DNA of 64,000 bases from Candidatus Hydrogenedentales bacterium (GTDB taxonomy: Bacteria; Hydrogenedentota; Hydrogenedentia; Hydrogenedentales; JAEUWI01). Under the pieces are notes generated by a model. It was not told the origin of the DNA. It made no database searches and worked only from the letters and a program-made list of their open reading frames with translations. The stretch lies in NCBI GenBank assembly GCA_942492815.1, contig OW818658.1, positions 5,208,125 to 5,272,124 of the forward strand, written 5' to 3'. Shown here piece after piece: positions 10,587-57,065 of this stretch (position 1 is the first letter of the stretch; each line of letters starts with the position of its first letter). The position numbers were made by a program, and so were the translations under genes.

Positions 10587-10600
10587 CAGGAAATCTATCG

Positions 10601-30865: not shown

Positions 30866-30913
30866 ACCGCGTATCGAAGCTGCGCGTAATACTCCCCGAA
30901 AACGAGTAGCCTC

Positions 30914-32350
30914 TCATCGCGTCAGCGCCTCCATCAATTGCGCCTTCAATGCTTCCCGGGTCTCGGCGATCTGCGCCAGGAGCTTTTCGTATTCCGGCAG
31001 GAGTTCGTCCACGTTGCCGGGGCCGGTGTCGGTGCTGTGGGGGTTCTTCAGGTCGAGGTTGTAGTTGCCCGCCTGGATGGCCGCCACGGAGACGCGCCAG
31101 GCCTGCTCGTTTTCCACGCGCTTCTTCCACCACTTTTTCTCGGGCGCGAATTCCTCAATGCGGATGGGCTTGGTCTTGTTGTAGCTCTTGGCGCCGGGGG
31201 GATAGGGGTGCTCGTAGTACCAGACCTCCTTCGTGGGCTTGCCCGCGTCGAAAAAGAGCAGATTGGTGCGGATGCCGGTGTAGGGGCTGAAGACGCCGTT
31301 GGGCAGGCGCACGATCGTGTGGAGGTTGAACTCGGTCAGGAGCCGCTCCTTGATGCGGGTCTTCACGCCTTCGCCGAAGAGGGTGCCGTCGGGCAACACG
31401 AGCCCCGCGCGGCCGCCAGGCTTGAGCAGCTTCATCAGCAGCACGAGGAAGAGATCGGCTGTTTCTCGCGTGCGGAATTCCGTCGGGAAGTTGGCCTCGA
31501 TCCCGTCTTCCTCCATGCCGCCGAAGGGCGGGTTGGTGACGATGACGTCCACGCGCTCGGTGGCCTTCCAGTCGCGCAGTGGCCGGGCGAGGGTGTTGTC
31601 GTGGCGCACGTTGGCGGGCACGTCGATGCCGTGGAGCATGAGGTTGGTCATGCAGAGGACATGGGGCAGGTGCTTCTTCTCGATGCCGTGGAAGCAGTCC
31701 TGGATCGCGCGCTCGTCGGCCTCGGTTTTGGCCTGCTTGCGCAGGTGCTCGATGGCGCAGGTGAGGAAGCCGCCGGTGCCGCAGGCGGGATCGAGGAGGG
31801 TCTCTCCGAGGCGCGGGTTGACCTGCTCCACGATGAACTGGGTGACGGCCCGGGGCGTGTAGAACTCGCCCGCGTTGCCCGCGGACTGGAGGTCTTTCAG
31901 AATGCGCTCGTAGATGTCGCCGAACATATGGCGGTCGTCGGAGGCGTTGAAATCGATGCCATTGATCTTGTTGATCACCTGGCGCATGAGGGTGCCGTTT
32001 TTCATGTAGTTGTTGGCGTCTTCAAAGCTCATGCGGATGAGCCCGGCAATCTTGTCCTGGCCGCCGGTGAGGGCCTTGAGCTTGGGCAGGAGCGTGTTGT
32101 TCACAAAATCGAGGAGGGCCTCGCCCGTGATGCCTTCCTCGTCCTTCGCCCAGTGGCTCCAGCGCAGGTGCGGGGGCAGGGGCGACTTGTAGTGGTCGCG
32201 GATGAGTTCGAGTTCCTGCTCGCGGTCATCGAATATTTTCAGGAAGAACATCCAACCGAGCTGCTCCAGGCGCTGGGCGTCGCCATAGGTGCCGGCGTCC
32301 TTGCGCATGATGTCCTGGATGGATTTTACGATATTGGAAACGTTGGACAT
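30914..32350 (-). CDS. hsdM: Type I restriction-modification DNA methyltransferase subunit HsdM
   Basis: N6-adenine methyltransferase motifs (TNPPFG, LDPACGTGGFL); 478 aa. Confidence 0.95.
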   Translation of the reverse strand: MSNVSNIVKSIQDIMRKDAGTYGDAQRLEQLGWMFFLKIFDDREQELELIRDHYKSPLPPHLRWSHWAKDEEGITGEALLDFVNNTLLPKLKALTGGQDKIAGLIRMSFEDANNYMKNGTLMRQVINKINGIDFNASDDRHMFGDIYERILKDLQSAGNAGEFYTPRAVTQFIVEQVNPRLGETLLDPACGTGGFLTCAIEHLRKQAKTEADERAIQDCFHGIEKKHLPHVLCMTNLMLHGIDVPANVRHDNTLARPLRDWKATERVDVIVTNPPFGGMEEDGIEANFPTEFRTRETADLFLVLLMKLLKPGGRAGLVLPDGTLFGEGVKTRIKERLLTEFNLHTIVRLPNGVFSPYTGIRTNLLFFDAGKPTKEVWYYEHPYPPGAKSYNKTKPIRIEEFAPEKKWWKKRVENEQAWRVSVAAIQAGNYNLDLKNPHSTDTGPGNVDELLPEYEKLLAQIAETREALKAQLMEALTR

Positions 32351-32394
32351 GGATTGGGCTTGCTTCTACGTGCGCGATTGCACGGGTGAGTTTA

Positions 32395-32467
32395 CAGGGA
32401 CGGCAGGGACATCAGGGACAACAGGAAGAGAGTATTCTGCCGTCCCTGATGTCGCTGCTGTCCCTGT
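32395..32467. promoter_or_regulatory. Imperfect inverted repeat with GGGAC heptad repeats between hsdR stop and hsdM start
   Basis: CAGGGACGGCAGGGACATCAGGGACAACAGG ... CTGCCGTCCCTGATGTCGCTGCTGTCCCTG in the 143-nt hsdR-hsdM spacer. Confidence 0.45.
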
Positions 32468-32493
32468 GAATGAGGGCGGATAATCCGCACATT

Positions 32494-34860
32494 TTACGCC
32501 ACCCTCCGGTACAGCTCGGCTTCGAGGGCCTGGATCGCCTCCAGGTACTGTTCCTTGCCGCCGAAGAGTTTCACGATCTCCGTGACGGTGCCGAATTGGG
32601 TCAGCGGAGCCACTTTCAATATTTCCAGGGACTCCACGCTCTGGATGCCGCCGTCGGCGAACTTGTCCAGCAGCGCGTCGAGCACGGCGCGCACCTCCGC
32701 GCCGTATTTCGCGAAGACGTGGCGCTTGCGCACGTTCTCCGCGCGCTCGCGCCGGGTGAGGGGCGGCTCGTCGAAGGCCACGTGGCAAATGAGGTCGAAG
32801 GCGTCGTAGTCGCGGCCCACCTGCTCGGCGAGTTCGTCCAGGAAGACGCCCTTGCCCGCGAGCTCTTCGAGGATGGCCTGCTTCCGCTCGGCATCGCTCC
32901 AAACGGTGAGAAATTCCGTCAGCGTGGCGAAGGACTTTTGCACGGTGCGGCGGCTGTAGTCGCGGAGGGATTCGGTGATGAGCTTGCCGTCGGCGTCGAG
33001 GTATTGCACGCGCTCGGTGACGATCTTTACTTCCACGTTGTCCACGTAGTACTTCTTCGGCCGTCCGCTGTCGCCCTCACCGTCGAGGGGCCAGGGCTCA
33101 CCGTCAATGTACACCTCGCCCTCTTCCTGAGCGTTCGTCGAACTTTCGTCCGGCGGCACCACGGAATCGTCGGGCCCGGGTACATAGATCTGCACCGGAT
33201 CGCCGTCGAAATCCGGATCGGCGAAGAGGGCCGTGGCGCGCTTGAAATCCATGATAGTGAAATAGAGCTTGCCGTAGTCCTCGCGGATGCGGGTGCCGCG
33301 ACCGATGATCTGCTTGAACTCGGTCATGGAGGCGATGCGCTTGTCGAGGACAATGAGGTGGCAGGTCTGGGCGTCAACGCCGGTGGACATGAGCTGGGAG
33401 GTGGTGGCGATGACCGGATAGTCCCGGCTGGGATCGATGAAATTGTCGAGCTGGGCCTTGCCCTCGGGGCTGTCGCCGGTGATGCGCATGACGTATTTGT
33501 CGTTGGCGGCGGCGAGGTCGGGGTTGGCGTTGACCAGGGCCTGGCGCATCCGCTCGGCGTGATCGATGTCGTCGCAGAAGACTATCGTCTTGGCGAAGCG
33601 GTTGGTGGCGTAGAGGAACTCGGTGATTTTCGCGGCCACGAGGGCGGTGCGCTTTTCGAGGACGAGGTTGCGATCAAAGTCGAGGATATTGTACTCGCGA
33701 TCTTCGATTTCGTGGCCGTATTTGTCGGTCTGGCCGCGCTCGGGCCGCCAGCCGTCGAGGTCTTTGTCGATGCCGACGCGGACCACCTTGTAGGGCGCGA
33801 GGAAGCCGTCGGCGATGCCTTGCTTGAGGGAGTAGGTGTAAATGGGTTCGCCGAAGTACTCGATGTTCGACACGTCGCGCGTTTCTTTGGGCGTTGCGGT
33901 GAGGCCGATCTGGGTGGCGGAGCTGAAGTACTCCAGGATCTGCCGCCAGTTGGCGTCGTCGGCCGCGCTGCCGCGATGGCACTCGTCGATCACGATGAGA
34001 TCGAAGAAGTCGGGCGAAAACTGTTTGTAGATGTTCTGATCTTCCTCGGTGCCGCTGACGGCCTGGTAGAGGGCGAGGTAGATCTCGAAGGCCTTGTCCG
34101 CCGTGCGGTTCGTGATCTTGGTCATGGCCTTGCCGAAGGGCTTGAAGTCGTTGCTCTTGGTCTGGTCGGCGAGGATGTTGCGATCGACGAGAAAGAGGAT
34201 GCGTCTGCGCGCCCCGGCCTTCCACAGCCGCCAGATGATCTGGAAGGCGGTGTAGGTCTTGCCAGTGCCGGTGGCCATAACGAGGAGGATGCGCTTCTCG
34301 CCGCGCGCGATGGCGTCCACGGTGCGGTTGATGGCGACGAGCTGGTAGTAGCGCGGGGCGCGGTCGGAGCCGTCGTCGTAGTAATCCTGGGTGGTCACGG
34401 CTTCCTGCGCGTCGGTGTAGCCTTTGGCCTGGCGATAGCGGGCCCAGAGTTCTTCGGGCGTGGGGAATTGATCGAGGGGGATCTCGCGCTCGACTGTGCC
34501 TCCGGTGCCAGTGCGGTCGTGCTCCAGAAAGGTGTCGCCGTTGGAGCTGTAAGCAAAGGGCACGTCGAGGATCTCGGCATACTCGAGCGCCTGCTGCATG
34601 CCCGCGCCCACAGCGTGGTTATTGTCCTTGGCCTCGACGACGGCAATGGGCATGTTGGGCTTGTAGAAAAGGAGGTAATCGGCTTTTTTCGCCTCGCCCC
34701 GCGACACGGACTTGCCCCGGACGATCACGCGCCCCTTGGTGAAGTGATACTCTTCGAGCATCTGGGTCATCACGTCCCACTTCGATCCGCCGGGTCCGAG
34801 GATCGCCGGCGTGATGAACTTGGTGCGGATGTCGGTCTCTGTCAGTGCCTTTTTGTCCAC
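32494..34860 (-). CDS. hsdR: Type I restriction enzyme endonuclease/helicase subunit HsdR
   Basis: 788 aa; N-terminal nuclease region, SF2 helicase motifs (ATGTGKT Walker A, DECHR); canonical HsdR N-terminus. Confidence 0.95.
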
Positions 34861-34953
34861 GTGTGCCCCTGTGTGCCTGTTTTGTATGAATCCCGCCCGG
34901 GCTCGGTGGGGCTATTGTACATGGCACCGGGCCGAAGTGGGAAGCGGGGCGGG

Positions 34954-35967
34954 CTATTTCGCCTTTTCCTCGATCCGCTTTGCTTCCCGCTCCAGTTCAG
35001 CCATTTCGTCGCTGGCGGCCTCTTCATCCAGTCTTCGCCGGTTGAACTTTTCGTACTCCCCTTCCGCGCGGGATTTTGCGAGGTCTGCGCTGATGGTGCC
35101 CGCGTTCTCCAGAACTTCCCGCCCGTTGAACTGGAGGAAGGCATTGAGCTTCCCCTCCCAATCGGCCATGTGCATGGGCTGCTTTCGCTCCGCCTGGTCT
35201 TCGGCGTAGTCGAGGTACATCGTTACGATTCGGTTGAGTCCACGCACTTCCTCCTCGGTGAGGTAGTTTTTCGCGATGGCCACGTCGCCCTTCCGAACTT
35301 TTGCGCCTTTCCAGGTGGTCAGGCCCATGTTGGGCTGGGTGGCGTCCACGCGTTCCACGATCAGCTCGGCAGCCGTGTGGCCGTGGGTCGCCCAGTGAAG
35401 TTTGTTCTGCACTGCCTTGAAGAAATGTCGGGCCTGTTCGGAGTTGGGTTCATAGTCCACAGCGAGGGCGTAGATATCCTGAATCTTCCGGTAGAAGCGT
35501 TTCTCCGAAGCGCGGATATCACGGATCCGCTCCAGGAGTTCGTCATAGTAGTCCGCGCCGAGATTGCGGCCCTCCTTGAGCCGCTCGTCGTCCATGGCGA
35601 AGCCCTTGACGAGGTATTCCCGGAGCCGCTCCGTGGCCCAGCGACGAAACTGGGTGCCCCGGTGGGAGCGAACGCGATATCCGACGGCGATGATCACGTC
35701 GAGGTTGTAGTGTTTGATTGCCCGCTGGACTTCCCGCGCGCCCTCGGATTGAACTGTCAAGTATTCCTTGACAGTTGCCCCTTCGTCGAGTTCGCCTTCC
35801 TCGTAAATATTTCGAATATGGAGACTTATGTTCTGCTTGCTGCTATGAAACAAGTCTACCAATTGCGCCTGGCTGAGCCAGACGGTCTCGTCTTCCAAGC
35901 GCACGTCGATGCGCGTCTTCCCGCCCTCGGGCTGGTATATGAGGATTTCCGATTGTGGTTCCGGCAT
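34954..35967 (-). CDS. rhuM: RhuM family protein (uncharacterised, frequently linked to Type I R-M loci)
   Basis: N-terminal region ...IYQPEGGKTRIDVRLEDETVWLSQAQLVDLFHSSKQNISLHIRNIYEEGEL typical of RhuM; directly upstream of hsdR on the same strand. Confidence 0.8.
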   Translation of the reverse strand: MPEPQSEILIYQPEGGKTRIDVRLEDETVWLSQAQLVDLFHSSKQNISLHIRNIYEEGELDEGATVKEYLTVQSEGAREVQRAIKHYNLDVIIAVGYRVRSHRGTQFRRWATERLREYLVKGFAMDDERLKEGRNLGADYYDELLERIRDIRASEKRFYRKIQDIYALAVDYEPNSEQARHFFKAVQNKLHWATHGHTAAELIVERVDATQPNMGLTTWKGAKVRKGDVAIAKNYLTEEEVRGLNRIVTMYLDYAEDQAERKQPMHMADWEGKLNAFLQFNGREVLENAGTISADLAKSRAEGEYEKFNRRRLDEEAASDEMAELEREAKRIEEKAK

Positions 35968-40352: not shown

Positions 40353-41351
40353 TCAACCCGCGAGGTAGGGCCGCAATTGCTCGCCCAGAACCTCAGAGAA
40401 AGCGGTCGCCCCCTCTTTGTTGACGTGAATGCGATCCTTGTAGAGTTTCGGATTCAGGAAGAGATCGCTCGTGCTGCTGTCCACGCGAACCACGGGCACC
40501 TCCAACTCCTCCAGCAGCGCAAGATAGGCATCCAGCAGGGCCGTGTGGTCGGCGAGGTCTTGTCCCTTCTTCTCCCACAGGGGCCCCAGGCACACAATAA
40601 ACGTCACGTTTTTCTCGCGGGCCGACGCCACGAAGTTGCGCAGGGTATTTACCTGGAAGGGGTCGATGGCGGGAACCGTAGTCGCTTCTGGCGGTGCATT
40701 CATCTCCTCAATCCGAACGATTTCCAGCACATCGGAACCGTAGTAAGGCAGGAAGCCCCGGCTCTTGATGGTGCCGGCTGAATCGGGCTTGAGGGTGTAC
40801 TTCAGGAGCGGCATCAGCATGGAATTGTAGGGATAGGCGGCGGAGAGCAGCCGCACGCGCTCGAACTTGCTGCGTTCCAGGAGGAGTGTGTTGAGGGCGC
40901 TGTTGTCGCGCTTGTAGTAGGGCAACAGGACCGAAAGCTTATCCAGACTGGCGGTGCCGCCGGCATCCCGGAGATCTTCCGGATTCAGATCGAGGACAAA
41001 CGCCTTTGGCGTGTATTCCCCCAGCACGAGCTGGGCGATCCCGTAGTGGCACAGGAGATTCTGCGCATCGATGCCGGCATTGAAAAAGCTACGCCCGGTG
41101 GACTTTTCCAGCACGTCGGGAATGTAGTGGTGCTTGGCGCGCGAGGAGCCGAAAACAACCACATCGTTGCGTTGCTCCAGGGTCAGATTGATGCACCCGC
41201 CGAAGTCGCCCTCCTGGGTTCTGGCGTACAGCTTCCCCAGGACAAGGCCGAGCCCCTGATCGATTGAAATGATCAGGATGGCGGCCAGCAGCGCGCGCAG
41301 GGCGAAGTGCTTGATACTAGAATTGGAAGTAGATGAATTGTCCGCCATCAA
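40353..41351 (-). CDS. DltD-like / SGNH-type protein partner of MBOAT acyltransferase
   Basis: 332 aa with N-terminal membrane anchor; immediately downstream of and overlapping the MBOAT gene. Confidence 0.55.
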   Translation of the reverse strand: MMADNSSTSNSSIKHFALRALLAAILIISIDQGLGLVLGKLYARTQEGDFGGCINLTLEQRNDVVVFGSSRAKHHYIPDVLEKSTGRSFFNAGIDAQNLLCHYGIAQLVLGEYTPKAFVLDLNPEDLRDAGGTASLDKLSVLLPYYKRDNSALNTLLLERSKFERVRLLSAAYPYNSMLMPLLKYTLKPDSAGTIKSRGFLPYYGSDVLEIVRIEEMNAPPEATTVPAIDPFQVNTLRNFVASAREKNVTFIVCLGPLWEKKGQDLADHTALLDAYLALLEELEVPVVRVDSSTSDLFLNPKLYKDRIHVNKEGATAFSEVLGEQLRPYLAG

Positions 41352-42753
41352 TCACGCCGATCGTCAAAATGAGTAGGATGCAGTACGAGTAAATACCCCA
41401 GCGCAGCCAAGTGGGCCACCGGTTGAAACTCTCGACCATCGTCCGGTTCCCCTGGAGCCGCTCCACCGCAAGCAGGGAGACAATGCCCAGGATGCCGTAG
41501 AAGAAGTGGCTGGCATTGGAAATATCCAGGGAGAACCAATTGGGGCCAAAAATGGCCCCGATCACGTGGAACGCGTCGGAGACATTGTTCGCGCGGAAGA
41601 AGATCCAGCCGAGGCAGACGAGGTGGAAGCAAATGAAGACTTGTACCGCCCCGTGCAATCGCTTGAAATTTTTCAGCCCGATCTTCTCCGAAAATGATTC
41701 GCGCAGAGACTTGCTGATCAGCGCGAAGACCAGGAAGAAGCCGTGGAGCGCGCCCCAGATGACGAAGGTCCAGTTGGCCCCGTGCCAGAGTCCGCTGACC
41801 AGGAAGATAATGAATAGATTCCGGTAATAATAAATTTTCCCGACCCGGTTCCCGCCGAGGGGAATGTACAGGTAGTCGCGAAACCAGGTGGAGAGGGATA
41901 TGTGCCAGCGCGACCAGAACTCGGAGATGGACTTGGACTCGTAGGGCTTCCGGAAGTTCTCCATCAGGTCGAAGCCCAGCATGCGCGCGGAGCCGATGGC
42001 GATATCCGAGTAGGCCGAAAAGTCGCAGTAGATCTGGAAGGCGAAGAAATAGGTCGCCATGATAAAGGTGGGCGCGGAATCAAAATGGTAGGGGTTGTTG
42101 TAAACCGTGTTCACGTAAATGGACAGCCGGTCCGCGATGACGATCTTCTTGAAGAGCCCCCAGAGAACCATGCGCAAACCGTCCACGATCCGCTGGATGT
42201 CGAGGGCGTGCTTCTCGTGGAACTGGGGCAGAAAGCTGACCGCGCGCTCGATGGGCCCGGCCACCAACTGGGGGAAGAAGCACACATACAGGGCAAATAT
42301 GCCAAAGTGGTGCTCCGCCTTCTTCTGCCCCCGATACACATCGATGGTGTAGCTCAGGGTCTGAAAAGTGTAAAACGAAATGCCCGCGGGCAGCAGGAGG
42401 TTATACGTGGGAAAGTGGTAGCCAATATTGAAGGTATTGAAGACTTCTTGAAAGCTCGCGCTGAAGAAGTTCAGATACTTGAAGGTAAAGAGCATCCCCA
42501 GGTTGGACGTGAGGCTGAAACCCAGCCACATCTTGCGCATCCGACTGCTGGTGGTTTTCTCCATCCCCAGCGCGGCAACATAGTCCACCAAGGTGGACAG
42601 CACGATGAGAATGATGAACTCCGCCTTCCAGCACATATAGAAGTAGTAGCTGACGATGAGGAGAAGGAACCACCGGAAACGGTGAGGGACGAGAAAGTAC
42701 GTCGCAACCACGAGCGGAAGAAAAAGCAGGAAATCTATCGAGTTAAACAGCAT
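41317..42753 (-). CDS. MBOAT family membrane-bound O-acyltransferase (AlgI/DltB-like)
   Basis: 478 aa multi-TM; conserved His region WHISLSTWFRDYLYIPLGGNR and ...SGLWHGANW. Confidence 0.9.
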   Translation of the reverse strand: MLFNSIDFLLFLPLVVATYFLVPHRFRWFLLLIVSYYFYMCWKAEFIILIVLSTLVDYVAALGMEKTTSSRMRKMWLGFSLTSNLGMLFTFKYLNFFSASFQEVFNTFNIGYHFPTYNLLLPAGISFYTFQTLSYTIDVYRGQKKAEHHFGIFALYVCFFPQLVAGPIERAVSFLPQFHEKHALDIQRIVDGLRMVLWGLFKKIVIADRLSIYVNTVYNNPYHFDSAPTFIMATYFFAFQIYCDFSAYSDIAIGSARMLGFDLMENFRKPYESKSISEFWSRWHISLSTWFRDYLYIPLGGNRVGKIYYYRNLFIIFLVSGLWHGANWTFVIWGALHGFFLVFALISKSLRESFSEKIGLKNFKRLHGAVQVFICFHLVCLGWIFFRANNVSDAFHVIGAIFGPNWFSLDISNASHFFYGILGIVSLLAVERLQGNRTMVESFNRWPTWLRWGIYSYCILLILTIGVIDGGQFIYFQF

Positions 42754-43353
42754 GGGGCCAGGTTTTCCGCTTATCCAATGTGGCTCGTGGTTGTTCTCAT
42801 GTTCAATTCAGCCAGGGGCTATGTCCGGCCACCCCCGAAAGATGACCCGAATGCAGTTCGGGCGCGCAGATCACCCACGGCTGGAGTGGTTGCAGTGAAC
42901 CATTCCAATCCATTCATGCGGGTGTGCCCGCTCCCGGAAGACGGCCTCCAAGGACCAACTCCGCTCCCCGGAACTCCGGCGACACCCACTCCGATTCGAA
43001 CCCCGACATGGTGCAGGCAATCCTCCACATTCTGGAAAACTCGCCTGCCGTGGGCACGGGCGGCAATGAGGCGGGGATGCATTATCATTACTGAAGATCA
43101 TCCCGGACACTTCACTGCGACCGCGTAGTGGTCGGGATTGTAAAGCATTTACCTCGATATTTCAAAGTAACAAGAGCACGGGCGAAAAGTCGGGCAGCCC
43201 GCCCCCTCATCCGAGGAGTTCCGCGCTTCCGCCGCGAGTCACGGGCGGCTCGGGTCCCGGTGACAGGGCGACCCTGCCCCGAATGCCGAGGCCCCGCCAC
43301 GGCGCATGCCGGGCGGGGCTCCAATAAGACTATTCAATCAGCACGGGGCCGAC

Positions 43354-46300
43354 TTATCGCGCCAGACGGAATCCGTTGATACCGTCGGAGTGGTTCGGGT
43401 CGTAGCGGAAGCGTCGGGACGAGCGCTGGTTCTCTTTTTTCACCAGTCGGGCCCAGGCGCCGCCGCGGGCAACCTTGTTGGTGCCGACTTCCGGCCCGCG
43501 CGGATTGTCCGTCACGTTTTGACTGTAATACGTGTCCAGATACCAGTCATCGCACCATTCAACCACATTGCCCGCCATGTCATAAGCCCCGATGGGGCTG
43601 GGGCTGTCCACGGTCTGGATATTGCCGTTGGGGCTGATATTGATTCCATTGAACCAGCCCACCGGCGAGGTATAGGACTCTTTCGCATCCTGGAGGATGC
43701 CCAGCGGGTTGATGAAGCTCGTGCTGCCGTAATCCGGATTGGGGCGGAAGGCGTCCACGTGGAAGTTGACCCGATCCCGCGTGGTCAGCTCGTCGCTGGT
43801 GATCGGATAGATCCAGTGCTTCTCACCGTCCCAGGCGGCCGCCCGCTCCCATTCGGCCTCGGTGGGCAGGCGGTAGCCATTCTTCGTGAAGTCGCCGGTC
43901 CACGTGTCCGTATCGTAGACCGGTTCGAGGCCGGAACGCTCGGAAAGCCAGTTGGCAAAGAGCACGGCGCCATACCACGTGGGCTCGGTCACCGGATGCG
44001 TCGCCTTGTCGTAGAAGGTGCCGGCCGGGATCCCTTCAAGGCTTTTCGTCACGAAGGCCTTGGAAGTCTGATCGTAGTCAATCCCGTCCTCCGTGAGGGC
44101 GAAAGCGAAGACCACCCGAGGCAATACGCTGTCGTAGAACCATGCATGCTCGGGGAAGCCACGCCACGTGGCGCCGTTGGGCCGCTTGAGCAAATCGCGG
44201 GAAGGATGGTGCATGTAATTCATGAACTCGGCATATTGGGCGTTGTTCACCTCAAATTTGCCGATCTCGTAGGCGTCCAGCGTAACGTCGCGGCGGGGAA
44301 GCTCATCCGACTGATCGAAAAGCGCGTCATCGCCGTCTTCCCGGGGCCCCATGGTAAAGGTGCCCGCGGGCACGGGAATCATGACCACATCTTCAAAGAA
44401 GGACGCGCTGAAGGTGCTCGTGGCGACCACCTCGGTGTCCGCGCGAGGATTGTCGGTGCTGCCATCGCTCCACTGGGAGAAGAGGTAGCCCTCATCGGGG
44501 ACCGCGGTCACCGCTGCCGTACTCGCGCCCACCGCAACATCCTGAACGGCGACACCGGCAATGTTCCCATTTTCCCCGGCCTCGTAGGTCACCGTAAGTG
44601 TCGCAGAGAAATTGGCCGTGACGGAAATATCGGCGCTGACATCCAGATCCGTGCGGGGATTGTCGAGAACGCCATCGCTCCAGCCGTCGAAGCCAAATCC
44701 GTTGGCGGGTACCGCCGTCACCGCGCGGCCATCCGCACCATCGCGGATGGTCTGGCTCGTGGGCCCGGTCAGGCTCCCGTTGCTGCCCGCGATATAAGTC
44801 ACGGTGAACAGCTCAACAAACTGGGCGGTCACCGTCACATCACTGATTACATTAACGTCGGTACGGGGATTCTGCTTCGTGTTGTCACTCCATTTGTCGA
44901 ACACGAAACTGGCATTGGCGACGGCCGTCACGGCCGTGCCCGAACCGCCTGTATTCACAATCTGGGTCGTCGTGCCGGTCAGCGTTCCGCCTTCGCTGGC
45001 CAGATACGTCAGGGTATAGGCCGGCACGAACTCCGCCGTTACGCTCAGGTCGCTTGTGGGGCCTGTGTCCACCCGGGGATTTTCCGTGCGACCATCGCTC
45101 CACTGATCGAAGCCATAGCCCTCATTGGGCACAGCGGTAACCGCCGTACCTGTGCCGCCGCTGCCGATCACCTGCTCCGTATCCCCCGTCAGGGTTCCAT
45201 TCGAGCCCGCCGTGTAAACCAAATCGATCGCCGTGGCGAAGTTCGCGGTCACGGTAACATCACCGTCCACGTCAACGTCCGTTCTGGGATTGTCCGAGCG
45301 CCCATCACTCCAGCCCGCAAAGCCGAAGGTCGCATTGGGCACCGCTGTCACCGCCGTGCCGTCCTCGCCGTCATTCACGATCTGCGAGGTCGCGCCCGTG
45401 AGGGAGCCGTTGGCCCCGGCAACATACGTCAGCGTGTACTGGGCCAGGAAATTGGCCGTAACCGTCACATCCCCATCCACATCGAGGTCCGTGCGGGGGT
45501 TGTCCTCGCTGCCATCGCTCCAGCCAAGAAAGATGAAACCCTCGCCGGGCACCGCGTTGACGGGCGTGCCATCGTTCCCGTCGATGACGGACTGCTGGGT
45601 CACGCCTTCCAGGGTGCCACCCGCGCTGGCGGTGTAGGTGAGTTGGAAGACTTCCCGGAAGTTGGCCGTAACCGCCAGGTCCGCCGTCACGTTAAGATCC
45701 GTGCGCGGATTGTCCGTGCGACCGTCGCTCCAGTCTTCAAAGACGAAGCTGTCGTTGCGCACGGCGGTGACGGGCGAGCCGCTGCCGCCCTCCGGCACGA
45801 GCTGGTTGGCGTTGCCCGCGATCGTGCCGCCCGCGCCCGCGGTGTAAGTGAGCGCGAAGAGTTCGGCAAAGTTGGCGGTCACGGAAATGTCCGCGCCCAC
45901 CGTCCGGTCACGGCGGGGATTGAGGGTGCTGCCATCGCTCCAGTTGACGAAGGCGTAACCGTCCAGAGGCACCGCCGTCACGGCGGAACCGTCCGCGCCG
46001 GGGGCCACACTCTGGGGCGTAGTGCCTTCGATGGTGCCGCCGGGGCCCGCCGCATAGGTCAGGGAAAAGGGATCGCCCCCATCGCAGGGGCCTTCAAAAC
46101 CACCCAGCGCAATAATCTGATCGAGGCGGTTACGGCTGACCTGCAGGGTCTCCGCCGTCGGCGTGCCTTCGCCGAAGAGCAGGCACACGGTAACAAGGTC
46201 GCCCCCATCATCCTCGGGTGTGCCGGGAAGATCGAGCACCACAATCGTGTGCGGTGCAATGGAACTGTCCAAGCCGGCCGTTCCCACCACGGCGACATCG

Positions 46301-47061
46301 GTGTTGATTGCCAGAATCGCGGGGGTGCCGCTCGGGGTGCCATAGTCGCCCGGCACGAAAATATCGGCGTCGCTGTAGTCCACCGTGTACCGGGCCGTGC
46401 CGGCTGCGAGGACGAAGGTCTCGGCGGCACTGTCCGTGCTCTCGATGGTGCCTTCGATCCGGGTATGGGAGACAGATTCCCGGAGATCGGCGGAAAGCGT
46501 CGGCGCCAGCGTATAGTTGCCGCCCTCGCCTTCGAGCACGTTGAGGCCACCCAGTTCGAGATAAAGCATGCCCGCGCTGTCGGCGACAATCTCAAAATCA
46601 AAGTCCAGGGTGTAGGTTCCGCCGTCAGACAGTGCCAGCGTGATGGTCTCCAGAGGATTGCTGACCAGCACCATGCTGGCCTGGGAGATTACGAGTTCCA
46701 CGCCGGTATACGCGCCAGCGGGGACTGTCGTATCCGAAAGGAGCGCCGCCACGGTGGTCAGATCTAAGAGATCCACCGTTTTCGCGCTGGGTAGGACACT
46801 GGTGGACACCGTATCAGCGCCATCCTGCGAAAGAACGCGAATCGCCTGGATTCGAGCCTCCAGACTCAGAATGGCCGCGTCGTCCACCGGGACGAGTCCC
46901 TTGGGGATCAATTTCCCGGCGTCAAGCGCCCCCGTGGCGAGGAGAACCTTGAGGCTCTCTTCCTCGGGTGTCGGGGGCGGACAACTGGTAAGGGCAATCG
47001 AGCTCAGCACGGCCAAAGTAAGAAAAAATGAACAGCGTCGAAAATTAATATAAACGTGCAT
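43354..47061 (-). CDS. Giant lipoprotein: N-terminal DUF4382-like region, 8 divergent InlB B-repeats, C-terminal formylglycine-generating-enzyme (FGE)-sulfatase domain
   Basis: 1235 aa; lipobox ALTSC; 8 repeats of ~75 aa with F-x-x-WSDG-x-x-x-NPRTD...VTANF; C-terminal FGE-type motifs (MAGNVVEWCDDWY, RGGAW). Confidence 0.85.
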   Translation of the reverse strand: MHVYINFRRCSFFLTLAVLSSIALTSCPPPTPEEESLKVLLATGALDAGKLIPKGLVPVDDAAILSLEARIQAIRVLSQDGADTVSTSVLPSAKTVDLLDLTTVAALLSDTTVPAGAYTGVELVISQASMVLVSNPLETITLALSDGGTYTLDFDFEIVADSAGMLYLELGGLNVLEGEGGNYTLAPTLSADLRESVSHTRIEGTIESTDSAAETFVLAAGTARYTVDYSDADIFVPGDYGTPSGTPAILAINTDVAVVGTAGLDSSIAPHTIVVLDLPGTPEDDGGDLVTVCLLFGEGTPTAETLQVSRNRLDQIIALGGFEGPCDGGDPFSLTYAAGPGGTIEGTTPQSVAPGADGSAVTAVPLDGYAFVNWSDGSTLNPRRDRTVGADISVTANFAELFALTYTAGAGGTIAGNANQLVPEGGSGSPVTAVRNDSFVFEDWSDGRTDNPRTDLNVTADLAVTANFREVFQLTYTASAGGTLEGVTQQSVIDGNDGTPVNAVPGEGFIFLGWSDGSEDNPRTDLDVDGDVTVTANFLAQYTLTYVAGANGSLTGATSQIVNDGEDGTAVTAVPNATFGFAGWSDGRSDNPRTDVDVDGDVTVTANFATAIDLVYTAGSNGTLTGDTEQVIGSGGTGTAVTAVPNEGYGFDQWSDGRTENPRVDTGPTSDLSVTAEFVPAYTLTYLASEGGTLTGTTTQIVNTGGSGTAVTAVANASFVFDKWSDNTKQNPRTDVNVISDVTVTAQFVELFTVTYIAGSNGSLTGPTSQTIRDGADGRAVTAVPANGFGFDGWSDGVLDNPRTDLDVSADISVTANFSATLTVTYEAGENGNIAGVAVQDVAVGASTAAVTAVPDEGYLFSQWSDGSTDNPRADTEVVATSTFSASFFEDVVMIPVPAGTFTMGPREDGDDALFDQSDELPRRDVTLDAYEIGKFEVNNAQYAEFMNYMHHPSRDLLKRPNGATWRGFPEHAWFYDSVLPRVVFAFALTEDGIDYDQTSKAFVTKSLEGIPAGTFYDKATHPVTEPTWYGAVLFANWLSERSGLEPVYDTDTWTGDFTKNGYRLPTEAEWERAAAWDGEKHWIYPITSDELTTRDRVNFHVDAFRPNPDYGSTSFINPLGILQDAKESYTSPVGWFNGINISPNGNIQTVDSPSPIGAYDMAGNVVEWCDDWYLDTYYSQNVTDNPRGPEVGTNKVARGGAWARLVKKENQRSSRRFRYDPNHSDGINGFRLAR

Positions 47062-48743: not shown

Positions 48744-49190
48744 TTGGCTAAAGGAAGACACCTTCTCATCGATTGTGTGAATGTGCCCCGGGAAGTCTGT
48801 GGCGACGACAAGCTGGTATTGAAGGCGATGGCATCGGCCGCGGAACGCGCCGGTGCAACCGTCATCTCCCAGGTTCGCTACCATTTTGGGCACAATTCCG
48901 CACCTGGCTTCACCGCCATGGTCCTGTTGGACGAGAGCCATTGTTCCGCGCATGCGTATTCGGACGAAGGCCTGCTCGCCTTGGATATCTTTACCTGCGG
49001 GGACACCGACCCCCGGGATGTATTGGCGTACATGCAGGAGATGCTCGATCTGGGCGATATTACCGTGCAGCATTGCGAACGGTTCCATACGCCCGGCGAG
49101 CGCTTTAGAGCGCCTGAGATTGCTGTCTCCCTGAAGTCCTTCCGTACCGAGGCATTCGAACTCGCGACGAGCGGGAACGGGCATGGATAA
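48744..49190 (+). CDS. speH: S-adenosylmethionine decarboxylase proenzyme, small bacterial type (SpeH)
   Basis: Self-processing site context LLDESHCSAHAY; TTG start with AGGAGG about 10 nt upstream. Confidence 0.85.
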   Translation: MAKGRHLLIDCVNVPREVCGDDKLVLKAMASAAERAGATVISQVRYHFGHNSAPGFTAMVLLDESHCSAHAYSDEGLLALDIFTCGDTDPRDVLAYMQEMLDLGDITVQHCERFHTPGERFRAPEIAVSLKSFRTEAFELATSGNGHG

Positions 49191-50277
49191 CCGCTGTTTC
49201 CACAGCGGTTCCGCAGACGGACTGAAACCTCTCTTAAGTCTTGACCTGGACCAGATCCACACCTTTAAGGGTCTGGTCCAGGCGATGTCTCACACGGCCT
49301 TCGGCGGACGAAGGCTGGGCGAGGCACTGGAAACGCTGACGGAAATGGTGCAGACGCCGGGATGCTTCAAAGTCATGAGCATCTCTGGCGCCATGACCGT
49401 GGCAAAACAGGGCAAGATCGTTTCAGACCTGATCGACCGCGGCGTCATTGACGCAGTCGTGGCCACCGGTGCGCTGGTGACCCACGGCCTGACGGAATCC
49501 TTCGGCAACACCCACTACGCGGTGCCCCATGACGCGACGGACGAGGAGCTTTTCGACCAGGGCTACAATCGGATTTACGATACCCTGGAGATGGAAGCGA
49601 ACCTCAACGATCTGGCGGAAATCATCGCCGGCATCATGGACAAGCAGGACGCGAACACCGCGTGGTGTTCCAGCGCCATCTGTCGCGCCATCGGCGAAGA
49701 GCTGGACAAGCGCGACGAAGGACCCGGAATTCTCCGGAGCGCCTACCGCCGTGGCGTGCCCGTGTATATCCCCGCCTTTACCGATAGCGAGATGGGACTT
49801 GACCTCTCCACTTGGGCCATGGCGCGAAGCCTGAAGCCCGGCGCGGCCCCCGAGGCGTGCCTCGACACCGTCCCGAATTTTAATCCCTTCCTCGATTTGC
49901 AGGATTATGCCAAGCGCGCCATCGGCGCCTCGACGCTGGGCATTTTCACCATCGGCGGCGGCGTGCCGCGCAACTGGGCTCAGCAAGTGGGCCCCTACGC
50001 CGACATCACCGCGCGGCGCCTTGGCATCACCCTGCCCGAGATCAAATTCAAGTATGCGGTGCGCATCTGCCCCGAGCCCGACCACTGGGGCGGCCTTTCC
50101 GGCTGCACCTACAGCGAAGGTGTGAGCTGGGGCAAGTTCGTGCCCCGCTCCGAAGGCGGCAAACACGCCGAAGTCCACGCGGACGCCACGACGGTCTTCC
50201 CCCTGCTGGCCAAGGCCCTCTTCGAGACGCTGGAAACGGGCGATGCCCCGAAGGTCTGTCCGAAGTCGGGCAAGTAA
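49183..50277 (+). CDS. Deoxyhypusine synthase-like protein (DHS family; possible homospermidine-synthase-type enzyme)
   Basis: 364 aa DHS-family architecture; 8-nt overlap with speH. Confidence 0.8.
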   Translation: MDNRCFHSGSADGLKPLLSLDLDQIHTFKGLVQAMSHTAFGGRRLGEALETLTEMVQTPGCFKVMSISGAMTVAKQGKIVSDLIDRGVIDAVVATGALVTHGLTESFGNTHYAVPHDATDEELFDQGYNRIYDTLEMEANLNDLAEIIAGIMDKQDANTAWCSSAICRAIGEELDKRDEGPGILRSAYRRGVPVYIPAFTDSEMGLDLSTWAMARSLKPGAAPEACLDTVPNFNPFLDLQDYAKRAIGASTLGIFTIGGGVPRNWAQQVGPYADITARRLGITLPEIKFKYAVRICPEPDHWGGLSGCTYSEGVSWGKFVPRSEGGKHAEVHADATTVFPLLAKALFETLETGDAPKVCPKSGK

Positions 50278-52116: not shown

Positions 52117-55100
52117 TTGAAGTACCACCTGACGATTGACCATCCCGAACGGCTTGCCCGATGTATCGCCGCCTTGGCCGCGCTGGCGTGCTCTGTGAGT
52201 ACGCGAGCGGCGGAGCCGTCCCCCGAAGCCATCGAGTTTTTTGAGACCAAGGTCCGCCCCGTGTTGGCGGACCGTTGTTTTAAGTGCCATGGCCCCGAGA
52301 CGCAAAAAGCGGGGGTGCGCCTCGACGCACGCTCGGCCATGCTGGCGGGCGGCGAGGGTGGTCCGGTCTTGTTGGAGGGCGATCAAGCGGCGAACAGCCG
52401 CATCCTCCAGGTCATCAAGTATGACACCCAGACAAAGATGCCTCCCGATGGTAAATTGGCGCAGGAGGAAATCGACGCCCTTACACAATGGGTGACGATG
52501 GGTAGCCCGTGGCCGGGTGGCGAGGAAGTGCTGGCGGCGAACAAATCCACGGCATGGGCGGATCGCATGGCGGCCGCCAAAGCCTCCCACTGGTCTTACC
52601 AGCCGGTTAACTTGCCCAGCGCGCCGGAGGTTACGGCGAAAGATTGGGCCCAGACGCCCATCGACCAGTTCATCCTGGCGCAGATCGAAGGGAAACAGAT
52701 TACGCCTTCGCCCAAGGCGGACAAGCGCACGTTGATCCGACGGGCGTACATGGATCTCACGGGCCTCGCCCCTACGATGGACGAGGTGCGGGCCTTTGAG
52801 GCGGATGAAAGCCCCGAGGCCTTCGAAAAAGTTATCGAGCAGTTGCTGGCATCACCGCGCTATGGCGAACGCTGGGGCCGTCACTGGTTGGACGTGGCGC
52901 GCTATGCGGACTCGAAAGGCTATGTGTTTCAGGAGGAGCGGAGCTTCGGCTTTTCCCACACCTACCGCGACTATGTCGTTCGCGCCTTCAATGAAGACCT
53001 GCCCTACAACACCTTCCTGAAACAGCAACTCGCTGCGGACCTGATGGATCTGGGCGAGGACAAGCGTCCCCTGGCCGCGCTGGGCTATCTCTCGCTGGGC
53101 CGTCGCTTCGTGGGCAATATTCACGACATCACCGATGACCGCATCGACGTGGTCATGCGGGGCATGCAGGGCCTCACGGTTTCCTGTGCGCGCTGCCACG
53201 ATCACAAGTACGACGCCATTTCCGCGGCGGACTATTACGGCCTCTACGGTATCTTCCGCAGCTCCACAGAGCCCGCGGAGTTGCCGCTGATCGAGGAGCC
53301 GAATCCCGACGATCCGAAGTATCAGGAGTTCCTTGCCGAGTTCAACCGCAAGCAGGCGGAAAAAGAGGCGCTGGTAGATCAGATCCAGGGCGACCTGCTG
53401 ACCCACTGTCGGGACCAGATTGGCACCTATCTGACGGCGGCCCACAAGGCCTGGGATATGGATGACCCGACGCTGCGGGTACTGGCTGCGGATCTGAAAG
53501 TGAAGTGGCAGGTCGTGACGCGCTGGCGCGATCACCTGAAAGCCCAGTCGGCCAATCCCCACCCCGTGCTCGGCCCGTGGTTCGCCTACCGCGCCCTGCC
53601 CGAAGCGGAGTTCGCCGCAAAGAGCCCCGAACTGGCCGCGCAGATTGCGGGCAAATCCCTCAACGGTGATGAAGTGAACCCGCGCATTGCCAAAAGCTTT
53701 GAAGGCGAAGCGCCGAAGACCATGGACGAGGTCACCCAGCGCTACGTGGACGCGCTCCGCGATGCCTCGAAGGATTGGGCGGACCTGCTGGCCTCCCGGC
53801 AGCAGATTGCGCTGAACAATCCCGAGCGCGCGGGTGAAGCGCCCCAGGCATTACCCGACCTCAACCAGGAGGCCGTGCGGCAGGTCCTCTTCGCGAAGGA
53901 CAGCCCCGCCAACATTCCCCGGGGCGATGTCTGGAATCTGAGTGAAGTGCCGATTCAGGGCCAGTTACGGGACAAGGACAACGCGATCACACGGGTGAAA
54001 AATACCCACCCCGGCCGCCCGAATCGGGCCATGGCGCTGGTGGACGGCGAGCTGTTCAATCCCTATGTATTCCGTCGCGGCCAGCCCGGCAGCAAGGGCG
54101 ACGATGTACCCCGGAAATTTCTCGATGTGCTCTCCACGCCCGCGTCCCAGCCTTATACGAATGGAAGCGGTCGCCTCGAACTCGCGAACGCGATTGCCAC
54201 GCACGAAAACCCCCTGACCGCGCGGGTGATGGTGAATCGAGTCTGGATGCACCACTTCGGCCGCCCGCTCGTGGGTACCCCGAGCGATTTCGGCGCGCGA
54301 AGCGATCTGCCCACCCACCCGGAATTGCTCGACTATCTCGCGAGCGAGTTCATGGCGGGCAACTGGTCGGTGAAGAATCTCCACCGGATGATCATGCGCT
54401 CGGCGGTGTATCAGCAGCAGAGCCTCGCCCGGCCCGACGGTGAAGTCGCCGATCCGGAGAACCGGCTGCTATGGCGGCAGAACCGGCAGCGCCTGGGCTT
54501 TGAGTCCATGCGCGATGGCGTGCTCCTGGCCGCAGGCCGGCTTGACACGACCATGGGCGGCGAAGGGGTATCGATTGTGGATGCCCCCTTCTCCACGCGC
54601 CGCACGATCTACGGCGAGGTGGAGCGCCAGAACCTGCCGGCGGTATTCCGCACCTTCGACTTTGCGAGCCCGGACATTCACACGCCCATGCGCGTGAACA
54701 CGACCGTGCCCCAGCAGGCCCTATTTCTCATGAACAGCCCCTTCCTCGTGGAGCAGGCCGAGCAACTTGCCGCGCGGGACGCGATCGCGCAGAAGGCGAC
54801 GCCCGAAGAGCGCATCGCCGCACTGTACCAAGCGGTCTTCCAACGCGATCCCGCGCCGGACGAGATCGCGCTGGGCAAGCGTTTTGTGGAGCACCAGGAG
54901 ACCTCCTCCCCCGATGAGTTCTCCCATCCGCGCTGGCAGTATGGCTATGGCGCGATAAACGGCGATACCGGCGCGCTGAATTCCTTCACAGCCATGCCCC
55001 ACTTCACGGGCACGGCGTGGCAGGGCGGCCCGACCCTTCCCGACCCGGTAAGCAACTGGGCCTCGCTGAATTCTCACGGCGGACATCCTGGCCCGGCGGG

Positions 55101-55527
55101 CTTTGCGGTGGTCCGGCGCTGGACCGCGCCTTATGACGCGACGATTGCCATGGACGGCGATTTGAAGCACGGCTCCGCCGAAGGCGATGGCGTCTTCGCT
55201 TCCGCCGTGGCCTCGAACGGCCAGGTGCTGTGGCGCGGAAGCGCCCACAACAACAGCACGGCAAGCATCTTTGAAACCCTCGAGGTAAAGGCGGGTGACA
55301 CGATCGACCTGGTGGTCGATTGCGGCGCGAGCCAGGACTTCGATTCCTTCACATGGCACCCGCGTATACACGTGCTGGCGGCTGCGGATGGCGACACCAG
55401 CGCGGGCCGGGAAAGCGAATGGCGCTCCCGCCTGGGTTTCCAGGGACCGCCCCCGCCGCCCATCGAGCCCTGGGGGAAATATGCCCAGGTGCTGCTGATG
55501 TCGAATGAGTTTATGTTTGTGGATTGA
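52117..55527 (+). CDS. PSCyt1/PSCyt2(DUF1549)/PSD1(DUF1553) domain protein with c-type heme motif
   Basis: 1136 aa; signal peptide; CFKCH (CxxCH); DUF1549-type RRAYMDLTGLAPT; DUF1553-type SCARCHDHKYD. Confidence 0.9.
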   Translation: MKYHLTIDHPERLARCIAALAALACSVSTRAAEPSPEAIEFFETKVRPVLADRCFKCHGPETQKAGVRLDARSAMLAGGEGGPVLLEGDQAANSRILQVIKYDTQTKMPPDGKLAQEEIDALTQWVTMGSPWPGGEEVLAANKSTAWADRMAAAKASHWSYQPVNLPSAPEVTAKDWAQTPIDQFILAQIEGKQITPSPKADKRTLIRRAYMDLTGLAPTMDEVRAFEADESPEAFEKVIEQLLASPRYGERWGRHWLDVARYADSKGYVFQEERSFGFSHTYRDYVVRAFNEDLPYNTFLKQQLAADLMDLGEDKRPLAALGYLSLGRRFVGNIHDITDDRIDVVMRGMQGLTVSCARCHDHKYDAISAADYYGLYGIFRSSTEPAELPLIEEPNPDDPKYQEFLAEFNRKQAEKEALVDQIQGDLLTHCRDQIGTYLTAAHKAWDMDDPTLRVLAADLKVKWQVVTRWRDHLKAQSANPHPVLGPWFAYRALPEAEFAAKSPELAAQIAGKSLNGDEVNPRIAKSFEGEAPKTMDEVTQRYVDALRDASKDWADLLASRQQIALNNPERAGEAPQALPDLNQEAVRQVLFAKDSPANIPRGDVWNLSEVPIQGQLRDKDNAITRVKNTHPGRPNRAMALVDGELFNPYVFRRGQPGSKGDDVPRKFLDVLSTPASQPYTNGSGRLELANAIATHENPLTARVMVNRVWMHHFGRPLVGTPSDFGARSDLPTHPELLDYLASEFMAGNWSVKNLHRMIMRSAVYQQQSLARPDGEVADPENRLLWRQNRQRLGFESMRDGVLLAAGRLDTTMGGEGVSIVDAPFSTRRTIYGEVERQNLPAVFRTFDFASPDIHTPMRVNTTVPQQALFLMNSPFLVEQAEQLAARDAIAQKATPEERIAALYQAVFQRDPAPDEIALGKRFVEHQETSSPDEFSHPRWQYGYGAINGDTGALNSFTAMPHFTGTAWQGGPTLPDPVSNWASLNSHGGHPGPAGFAVVRRWTAPYDATIAMDGDLKHGSAEGDGVFASAVASNGQVLWRGSAHNNSTASIFETLEVKAGDTIDLVVDCGASQDFDSFTWHPRIHVLAAADGDTSAGRESEWRSRLGFQGPPPPPIEPWGKYAQVLLMSNEFMFVD

Positions 55528-55625
55528 GCGGGAGCACGGACATTCCTGTCCGTGTCCTCGTGCAACGGAGTTGCACGATACGCGGGTAAGAAAACCCGCG
55601 CTCCCGAGTACTGGAGTAAAACCAA

Positions 55626-57065
55626 ATGAGTCACCATAAACCAACCGCCGACGACTTCGTCTTAAACCGGCGCGATTTCCTCAAGCGCACCGGCATGGGC
55701 TTTGGCGCGATGGGCCTGGCCAGCACCCTGCTCGGCGGCAGCACGAACGCCTTCGGCGCGCTGAATCCCACCGCGCCGCAGCGGCCCCACTTCGAGGGCA
55801 AGGCGAAGCGCGTGGTCCATATCTTCCACAACGGCGGCCTCTCCCAGGTGGACTCCTTCGACCCGAAGCCCTCGCTGGCGAAGTACGCGGGCCAGAACCT
55901 GCCCAACTTGAATCTCCGCACGGAGCGGCCCACCGGTGCGGCTTTCCCTTCACCCTTCACCTTCAAGGAATATGGTGAGAGCCGCATTCCCGTGAGCAGT
56001 CTCTTCCCCCACCTGGGCGAGTGCGTGGACGACATGTGCATCGTGCGCTCCATGTGCGCGGACGTGCCGAATCACGAGCCGTCGCTGTTGTTGATGAATT
56101 GCGGCGACGCGCGCCAGATTAGGCCGAGCGTAGGCTCGTGGGTCACCTATGGCCTGGGCACGGAAAACCAGAATCTGCCCGGTTTCATCTCCATGTGCCC
56201 CAGCGGCTACCCGATCCAGGAGTCACAGAACTGGCAGTCGGGTTTCCTCCCCGGCGTGTACCAGGGCACCTACATAGATACGCAGCACACAGAGATGGAA
56301 AAGCTCATCGCCCACATCGAGAACAACTACCAGTCGAGCAAATCGCAGCGCGAACAACTCGACCTGCTCAGCGAATTAAACCACCGCCACCTCGCCGCAC
56401 GCGACCAGGACAGCGAACTGGAGACGCGCCTTCAGAGCTTCGAACTGGCCTACCGTATGCAGCTCGACGCAACGGACGCCTTCGACATTTCCCGCGAACC
56501 GGAAAGCATCCGCGAGATGTATGGGCCGGGCGTGCATGGGCGTCAGTGTCTCATCACGCGGCGGCTGCTGGAGCGGGGCGTGCGCTTCATCCAGCTCTGG
56601 CACGGCGCGGGCCAGCCCTGGGACAGCCACGACGACATCGAGAAACTCCACGGCAACCTCGCGAAGGAATGCGATCAGGGCATCGCGGCGCTTTTGAAGG
56701 ATTTGAAACAGCGCGGCATGCTGGACGAGACGCTGGTGCTTTGCACGGGCGAATTCGGCCGCACGCCCACCGTCGAACTGCCCACGCCCGGCGCAAACGC
56801 GGGCAAAGTGAACGGCCGCGATCACAACCACTACGGCTTCACAGCCTGGATGGCGGGCGGCGGCGTGAAGGGCGGCCACATCCACGGCGCGACGGACGAG
56901 TTCGGCTTCCAGGCGGTGGAAAACCGGGTCCACGTCCACGACCTCCACGCGACGATGCTCCACTTACTGGGCTTTGACCACGAAAAACTGACCTACCGCT
57001 ACGCGGGCCGCGATTTCCGACTGACGGACGTACACGGGCACGTCGTGCGGGACATTATTGCGTAG
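55626..57065 (+). CDS. DUF1501 domain protein (sulfatase-like fold) with twin-arginine signal
   Basis: 479 aa; Tat motif NRRDFLKRTGMGFGAMGLA; canonical partner of the DUF1549/DUF1553 protein. Confidence 0.9.
   Translation: MSHHKPTADDFVLNRRDFLKRTGMGFGAMGLASTLLGGSTNAFGALNPTAPQRPHFEGKAKRVVHIFHNGGLSQVDSFDPKPSLAKYAGQNLPNLNLRTERPTGAAFPSPFTFKEYGESRIPVSSLFPHLGECVDDMCIVRSMCADVPNHEPSLLLMNCGDARQIRPSVGSWVTYGLGTENQNLPGFISMCPSGYPIQESQNWQSGFLPGVYQGTYIDTQHTEMEKLIAHIENNYQSSKSQREQLDLLSELNHRHLAARDQDSELETRLQSFELAYRMQLDATDAFDISREPESIREMYGPGVHGRQCLITRRLLERGVRFIQLWHGAGQPWDSHDDIEKLHGNLAKECDQGIAALLKDLKQRGMLDETLVLCTGEFGRTPTVELPTPGANAGKVNGRDHNHYGFTAWMAGGGVKGGHIHGATDEFGFQAVENRVHVHDLHATMLHLLGFDHEKLTYRYAGRDFRLTDVHGHVVRDIIA

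Follow-up and report, generated by a model that had tools for sequence, protein, structure and literature searches.

A B-repeat lipoprotein of Candidatus Hydrogenedentales carries a formylglycine-generating enzyme-like head that lacks the catalytic cysteine pair

In a 64,000-nucleotide stretch of a Candidatus Hydrogenedentales genome (contig OW818658.1, positions 5,208,125 to 5,272,124; hereafter the window), a complete open reading frame (ORF) on the minus strand at 43354–47061 encodes a lipoprotein of 1,235 residues in which eight InlB-type B-repeats separate an N-terminal all-beta module from a C-terminal domain with the fold of a formylglycine-generating enzyme (FGE). Judged from its sequence, this domain does not qualify as a true FGE and is not expected to generate formylglycine. 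Its features instead place the lipoprotein with the non-catalytic FGE-fold/C-type-lectin (CLec) binding proteins related to targets of diversity-generating retroelements (DGRs), and we consider it probable that the protein is an exported, lipid-anchored, stalk-and-head binding protein whose FGE-like head is non-catalytic and of fixed specificity. A preliminary description of this DNA, made from the letters alone, had recognized the combination of lipoprotein, B-repeats and FGE fold in 1,235 residues, on which ORF, lipobox and Pfam all agree, and had proposed a surface-displayed enzyme or binding protein. The binding half of that proposal fits the evidence below; the FGE-enzyme half founders on the missing cysteine pair.

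The C-terminal domain retains the fold of an FGE but not its active site. It occupies residues 893–1235 (43357–44385, minus strand), is C-type-lectin-like, belongs to a long, 343-residue subtype, and is matched by PF03781 over residues 894–1235 (E = 1.1e-41; 143.7 bits against a cutoff of 23.3). An AlphaFold model based on an alignment of 79 family members of this subtype is confident (pLDDT 91.2, pTM 0.92), and Foldseek ranks FGEs first among its structural matches (E = 7e-19), with TvpA, the variable protein 1 of Treponema denticola (PDB 2y3c), at E = 3e-15. The FGEs of human (SUMF1), S. coelicolor and T. curvata thus share Pfam family and fold with the lipoprotein head at 22–26% identity, but they carry a copper-binding catalytic cysteine pair (C336 and C341 in the human enzyme, for which C336S and C341S mutants have been solved) that is absent here. 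Cysteines occur in the lipoprotein only at positions 10, 27, 293, 326 and 1170, with none in residues 1196–1235. Aligned by phmmer, the catalytic loop of the T. curvata FGE (6s07), GGSFLCHESYCNRYR, which holds its CxxxxC motif within GGSFLCHESYC, pairs with GGAWARLVKKENQR of the lipoprotein, and Arg and Glu stand at the two cysteine positions. The pair is likewise missing in the orthologs and in the second heads of three two-headed relatives described below (P0004–P0006), and CxxxxC occurs in only 3 of 104 family C-termini, a frequency compatible with chance in hypervariable loops. Extra insertions, the fusion to adhesin-type repeats and the lipid anchor further set the lipoprotein apart from FGEs.

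Searches against NCBIfam return partial matches that all fall below threshold (bits/cutoff: GldK 69.1/350, EgtB 40.9/360, SenA 40/420, PvdO 36/500 and OvoA 15.3/400), and a DinB-type iron domain is lacking because the B-repeats directly precede the FGE-fold domain. Domain scans covered about 40 ORFs of the window, and none of these matches the sulfatase family PF00884. Of the earlier assignment to an FGE/SUMF1-type domain, the fold therefore stands and the active site does not. A literature search found no paper on the combination of B-repeats with an FGE-sulfatase domain, and no well-characterized family with the exact architecture was found; the architecture itself can already be found in public databases, where misleading names mark it as an enzyme.

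The head belongs to a very large family with the hallmarks of DGR targets. Among 8,000 scored candidates, 5,670 match the 343-residue subtype at E ≤ 1e-5, and the same head recurs on many different extracytoplasmic modules (PKD, dockerin, PASTA, Ig, BACON and B-repeats), which suits a portable binding head. Family C-termini alternate an invariant scaffold (R-G-G-x-W, C-R-S-A-x-R, P and G-F-R) with hypervariable positions of more than 3.5 bits of entropy, where S, Y, D, N, G and F prevail and K, E, Q, M and W are scarce. Such a spectrum is that expected of AAC codons under DGR adenine mutagenesis. TvpA presents the same scaffold (RGG-x-W...R-[ST]-[AS]-x-R...P...GFR); it is reported to have the FGE fold but no FGE activity, with ligand binding proposed for its diversified C-terminus, and FGE-sulfatase/CLec1 proteins form the largest class of DGR targets; DGRs can also act on remote targets (PMC5758913). 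The lipoprotein head most resembles TvpA and the CLec1 class, with which it shares the lack of FGE catalytic function and the proposed binding role. Unlike these targets, it follows a DUF4382 lipoprotein module and a stalk of eight repeats, its equivalent of the DGR variable region is fixed, no template repeat occurs in the window, and Avd and reverse transcriptase genes are absent from the scanned ORFs. The stalk also has wider relatives: hundreds of large InlB B-repeat (Flg_new_2) proteins from many phyla match at 40–57% identity over the repeat region, but most carry SLH, PKD, Laminin-G or other heads instead, and the combination of B-repeats with an FGE-like head is concentrated in Hydrogenedentes-like metagenome sequences.

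One relative with B-repeats and the same head, P0092, is a proven DGR target. Its gene adjoins genes for bAvd and RVT_1. A template located downstream agrees with the final 110 nt of the gene at 86 of these 110 positions, and each of the 24 mismatches coincides with a template adenine. The locus (L004, contig MTKZ01004065.1) holds a complete DGR at 416–7576, consisting of the target gene (Cu-binding_MopE, B-repeats and FGE-like domain) at 416–4402, bAvd at 5173–5529, a short RVT_1 ORF of 204 residues at 6571–7185 and the template repeat at about 7467–7576, downstream of the called reverse transcriptase ORF. Two more FGE-sulfatase genes on this contig, at 9856–10695 and 11915–13036, may be extra DGR targets.

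In the Hydrogenedentales lipoprotein, the corresponding segment appears from its sequence to be fixed rather than diversified. The family entropy profile places the variable-region equivalent at residues 1196–1235, KVARGGAWARLVKKENQRSSRRFRYDPNHSDGINGFRLAR (43357–43476, minus strand). Full-length orthologs were compared at overall identities of 95% (P0001), 88% (P0002), 87% (P0003), 68% (P0007) and 65% (P0008), and in that order the segment is 100, 97, 97, 93 and 75% identical; it is the best-conserved region of the protein, and the N-terminal domain reaches 93, 81, 79, 55 and 57%. Identity of the segment also exceeds the gene average at the DNA level (0.91 against 0.82, and 0.81 against 0.67). 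Its composition includes K, K, E and Q, and K, E and Q are residues that NNC codons do not encode. A Gln stands where 55 of the 79 aligned family members have Cys, and a two-residue insertion is shared by few members. The segment has a net charge of +8 in a mature protein whose remainder carries about −109.

A search of the whole window on both strands with the last 180–200 nt of the gene found no template repeat above chance level (the best match agrees at 54 of 110 positions and has 6 of its 56 mismatches at A). The same script recovered the template repeat of L004, which served as positive control, and the lipoprotein gene itself was accordingly rejected as a DGR target. RVT_1 and bAvd, both present in the control locus, are absent from the scanned ORFs of the window.

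The stalk consists of eight tandem B-repeats (Flg_new_2) spanning residues 333–892 (44386–46065, minus strand), in agreement with the count and the approximate location of 44.4–46.1 kb given earlier. PF18998 matches in eight stretches (E = 6.5e-70; 231.5 bits against a gathering score of 23.6) and the related Flg_new model adds a match of 56.6 bits. From the N-terminal end, units 1–4 lie at 45856–46065, 45646–45855, 45436–45645 and 45226–45435, and units 5–8 at 45016–45225, 44806–45015, 44596–44805 and 44386–44595, all on the minus strand. The period is exactly 70 residues, or 210 nt, rather than the approximately 75 residues proposed in the preliminary description, and the near-identity of the repeats at the DNA level that it reported was not found. 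Pairs of units share 49–66% of their DNA (mean 58%) and 41–66% of their protein sequence (mean 52%). Third codon positions agree at 41% against a 33% baseline, identical residues in different units use the same codon in only 49% of cases, and the longest exact word common to two units is 18 nt. Ungapped repeat finding returned copies at only 60–77% identity, and Tandem Repeats Finder reported no array over 42–48.5 kb. For comparison, unrelated 210-nt blocks taken in frame from this gene share 29% of their DNA, against the mean of 58% between units. The B-repeats are thus genuine, but old and diverged.

Repeat number is correspondingly constant. Every full-length ortholog, from 95 to 65% overall identity, has exactly eight repeats with identical boundaries, as do the N-terminally truncated P0009 and P0011. 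The cluster at ≥90% identity contains six full-length members, all of 1,235 residues and all with eight repeats; its remaining members are one protein of 1,233 residues on a 4.7-kb contig and fragments on short contigs. One copy at this level of identity, P0390, lies on a 7.9-Mb contig. Compared unit by unit with P0002, each repeat is most similar to its positional counterpart (diagonal mean 0.89, off-diagonal mean 0.52; diagonal best in 8 of 8 rows), and the diagonal pairing is still best in 6 of 8 rows for orthologs at 65–68% overall identity. The repeats thus pair one-to-one between orthologs, without concerted evolution. A repeat number prone to slippage had been predicted from the supposed DNA identity, and that basis is gone because the repeats are not near-identical in DNA; with the count constant at eight, slippage is not supported.

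Size has nonetheless changed in related Hydrogenedentiales, where P0004, P0005 and P0006 are two-headed proteins of 1,934–2,006 residues in which the N-terminal module, eight repeats and a head are followed by five to six repeats and a second head. P0005 occupies the orthologous chromosomal position (L003, 8001–13808). Size change in this lineage is a duplication of the whole module of B-repeats plus FGE-like domain, not single-repeat slippage.

The N-terminus has the features of an exported lipoprotein. The ORF, supported by Pfam and by orthologs at 95–65% identity, starts with ATG and ends with a stop codon at 43354–43356 (minus strand). Direct reading of residues 1–27 (46981–47061, minus strand) gives a signal peptide, MHVYINFRRCSFFLTLAVLSSIALTSC, in which a basic n-region and a hydrophobic core lead up to the lipobox L-T-S-C at residues 24–27, in line with the pattern [LVI]-[ASTVI]-[GAS]-C; the Pro-rich linker PPPTPEEE follows directly. 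The lipobox is kept in all orthologs, as LT[SG]C or LASC in P0001–P0008. Cys27 is thus the likely lipidated residue, and the protein is predicted to be exported and lipid-anchored. A 1,153-residue ORF was also called antisense to the gene, entirely within it, at 43306–46767 on the plus strand; given that the strong Pfam matches sit on the minus strand, we regard this frame as a shadow ORF that the GC-rich, repeat-coding strand produces.

Between the linker and the stalk lies an all-beta module at residues 28–332 (46066–46980, minus strand), composed in order of DUF4382, an OB-fold-like beta-barrel that is DUF5666-like in relatives, and a short segment with Cys293 and Cys326. DUF4382 (PF14321) matches residues 70–187 (46501–46854) at 37 bits against a gathering score of 25. 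Cys293 (46183–46185) and Cys326 (46084–46086) are invariant in 10 of 10 aligned orthologs and paralogs, which suggests a structural disulfide and would fit an oxidizing, extracytoplasmic location. An exhaustive HMMER search found the module in 142 representative clusters, frequently as a stand-alone protein of about 270–300 residues that matches DUF4382 and sometimes, weakly, DUF5666. A word-indexed protein search with these N-terminal 305 residues (46066–46980) gave zero matches despite the presence of orthologs in the same database, probably through swamping of the word prefilter by the acidic, low-complexity N-terminal segment; the exhaustive search recovers the orthologs missed in this way.

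We propose that the N-terminal DUF4382 and OB-like barrel module sits close to the membrane and that the eight B-repeats act as a spacer of fixed length that would project the C-terminal head away from it. The head would bind its ligand through the surface formed by the last 40 or so residues, which in relatives is the part diversified by DGRs; the analogy with TvpA and these relatives makes it the candidate binding site. Because this surface is frozen in the Hydrogenedentales lineage, a single constant ligand is the predicted target. We further speculate that this putative ligand is anionic, perhaps a polysaccharide that is acidic or sulfated or some other polymer of the cell envelope, because the strongly basic C-terminal segment contrasts with the high acidity of the rest of the protein.

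Several points weigh against this reading. That the basic segment lies exposed on the surface is a prediction by analogy with TvpA, and a protein with these export and lipid-anchor signals could face either the periplasm or the cell surface. The neighbouring genes, which encode MgtC, MBOAT and GDSL-like proteins, Hsp20 and RecF, give no functional hint. Moreover, several FGE-fold proteins without the cysteine pair, including PvdO, EgtB and CalU17, are enzymes or enzyme partners.

The last point bears on an enzymatic alternative, in which the head uses the FGE fold, as do PvdO, CalU17 and the sulfoxide synthases, to act on an envelope or extracellular substrate. Apart from the generic scaffold, the family does keep some polar residues wholly or almost without variation (for example His190 in WDGxKHW, Asp198 and Asn207), but the near-invariant family residue His32 is Arg in the lipoprotein, the DinB-like N-terminal domain with the iron-binding His triad that EgtB and OvoA require is missing, and the NCBIfam models of EgtB, SenA, OvoA and PvdO score only 15–41 bits against cutoffs of 360–500. 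The region that forms the active site in FGE-fold enzymes is, furthermore, hypervariable across the family, as is typical of binding rather than catalytic sites, and we regard an enzyme of this kind as unlikely. A genuine FGE that matures sulfatases outside the cytoplasm is the least probable of the alternatives, scarcely credible despite the strength of the PF03781 match, the FGEs at the head of the Foldseek ranking and source annotations that read 'formylglycine-generating enzyme required for sulfatase activity' and 'SUMF1/EgtB/PvdO family nonheme iron enzyme'. Metagenome-assembled genomes (MAGs) of Hydrogenedentes have been reported to contain both sulfatases and PF03781 genes (PMC9723792), which would suit such a function. 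The absence of both copper-binding catalytic cysteines, here and in the orthologs, largely refutes it; the rarity of CxxxxC among family C-termini and the lack of a sulfatase in the scanned ORFs, where the DUF1501 protein is without the C/S-x-P-x-R motif, point the same way.

A structural role, as a PorK/GldK-like lipoprotein in an envelope-spanning secretion or motility ring, is slightly less improbable than that but still quite unlikely. The best NCBIfam match is indeed the GldK model TIGR03525 (E = 4.3e-19), and both proteins are lipoproteins. However, 69.1 bits are a fraction of the 350 that the equivalog cutoff demands, and the best-matching part is confined to about 70 residues at the C-terminus. 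Solved PorK chains lack a repeat stalk and DUF4382, and the FGE-fold match spans most of their 445–491 residues. No neighbours like gldL/M/N or porL/M/N occur here or in three syntenic loci (L001–L003), and no type IX secretion system (T9SS) genes were found among the scanned ORFs of the window; the lipoprotein thus differs from this T9SS ring component in overall architecture, score and gene neighbourhood. A portable module for binding would explain better than a ring subunit why the same head recurs on dockerin, PKD and PASTA proteins. Continued diversification in trans, by a retroelement outside the window, is very improbable, although the fold and C-terminal scaffold are those of CLec1 targets, P0092 shares the architecture, and DGRs are able to act on remote targets (PMC5758913). 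Against it stand the chance-level template matches and the absence of reverse transcriptase and Avd genes from the scanned ORFs, the two-residue insertion, and the K, K, E and Q residues, which are inaccessible to AAC-codon mutagenesis. Most directly, the segment that would be diversified is the most conserved of the protein, with 100% identity to the ortholog at 95% overall and 93% to that at 68%.

A fixed binding head could have arisen from a 'retired' DGR target, in which an ancestral hypervariable head settled on one useful specificity, a basic surface that may take an anionic ligand, the retroelement was lost and strong purifying selection followed. We hold this history to be possible but somewhat doubtful, and a cysteine-less FGE fold that acquired a new extracytoplasmic catalytic activity to be less likely than it.

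Genomic context locates the gene in a conserved chromosomal region. The closest genome records of the lipoprotein are Candidatus Hydrogenedentales and Hydrogenedentes MAGs, so that the Planctomycetota setting in which the domain had first been discussed does not apply to the organism. The gene order MgtC, lipoprotein, MBOAT with GDSL-like, Hsp20 and, further on, HDOD and RecF is kept in L001 and L002 and partly in L003, where a CDP-alcohol phosphatidyltransferase gene replaces the MBOAT/GDSL pair downstream. Because the whole region is syntenic among relatives, adjacency is functionally uninformative, and operon-level inference from the neighbours was rejected on this ground. A promoter and terminator scan gave results at background level.

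Other features of the window were recorded alongside. An MBOAT (AlgI/DltB-like) gene overlaps a 332-residue ORF at 40353–42753 (minus strand); this ORF has no Pfam match, its L002 ortholog shows a faint GDSL-lipase match, and the two genes resemble a polysaccharide or teichoic-acid O-acylation pair. A promoter-like site lies upstream of them at 43165–43137. On the plus strand at 48744–50277, an S-adenosylmethionine decarboxylase gene is directly followed by a deoxyhypusine-synthase-family gene, a pairing that is kept in L002 and is probably a polyamine biosynthesis pair. A PSCyt1/PSCyt2/PSD1 (DUF1549/DUF1553) gene and a DUF1501 gene form a pair at 52117–57065. This pairing is typical of Planctomycetota-like genomes and may explain the earlier mention of Planctomycetota. 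The DUF1501 protein has a Tat-like N-terminus, RRDFLK, and a sulfatase link through it was rejected for want of the C/S-x-P-x-R motif.

A type I restriction-modification system is encoded by hsdS (28690–30297), hsdM (30914–32350) and hsdR (32494–34860), with a RhuM-family gene beside it at 34954–35967. In L001 and L002 it is DciA and other genes that come after RecF, which gives the block (28690–35967) the look of an island inserted beside recF. The Acido-Lenti-1 RNA motif (Rfam RF01687; gathering score 37) occurs three times, at 24685–24745 (minus strand, 49.3 bits), 28119–28166 (plus strand, 40.3 bits) and 28550–28597 (plus strand, 40.3 bits), the last two directly beside the hsdS end of the cluster.

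These results call for a correction of annotation that reaches beyond one gene, as the lipoprotein shares the label 'formylglycine-generating enzyme' or 'nonheme iron enzyme' with thousands of related proteins. The capacity of MAGs, from Hydrogenedentes and from other groups, to mature sulfatases is being deduced from PF03781 matches (for example, PMC9723792), and such counts are too high because members like this lipoprotein cannot be FGEs. The repeat array is also evidence that instability is no necessary property of long tandem repeats in proteins; here the array is old, diverged and locked in length. For the Hydrogenedentales, the analysis places a lipoprotein family beside DGR-diversified receptors and defines a candidate binding head (residues 893–1235, with its basic C-terminal surface) in a phylum with almost no experimental data. 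If the history of a 'retired' target were true, the family would be a natural example of how binding sites explored by a DGR become hard-wired, and duplication of stalk and head in sister lineages would have given rise to the two-headed receptors P0004–P0006.

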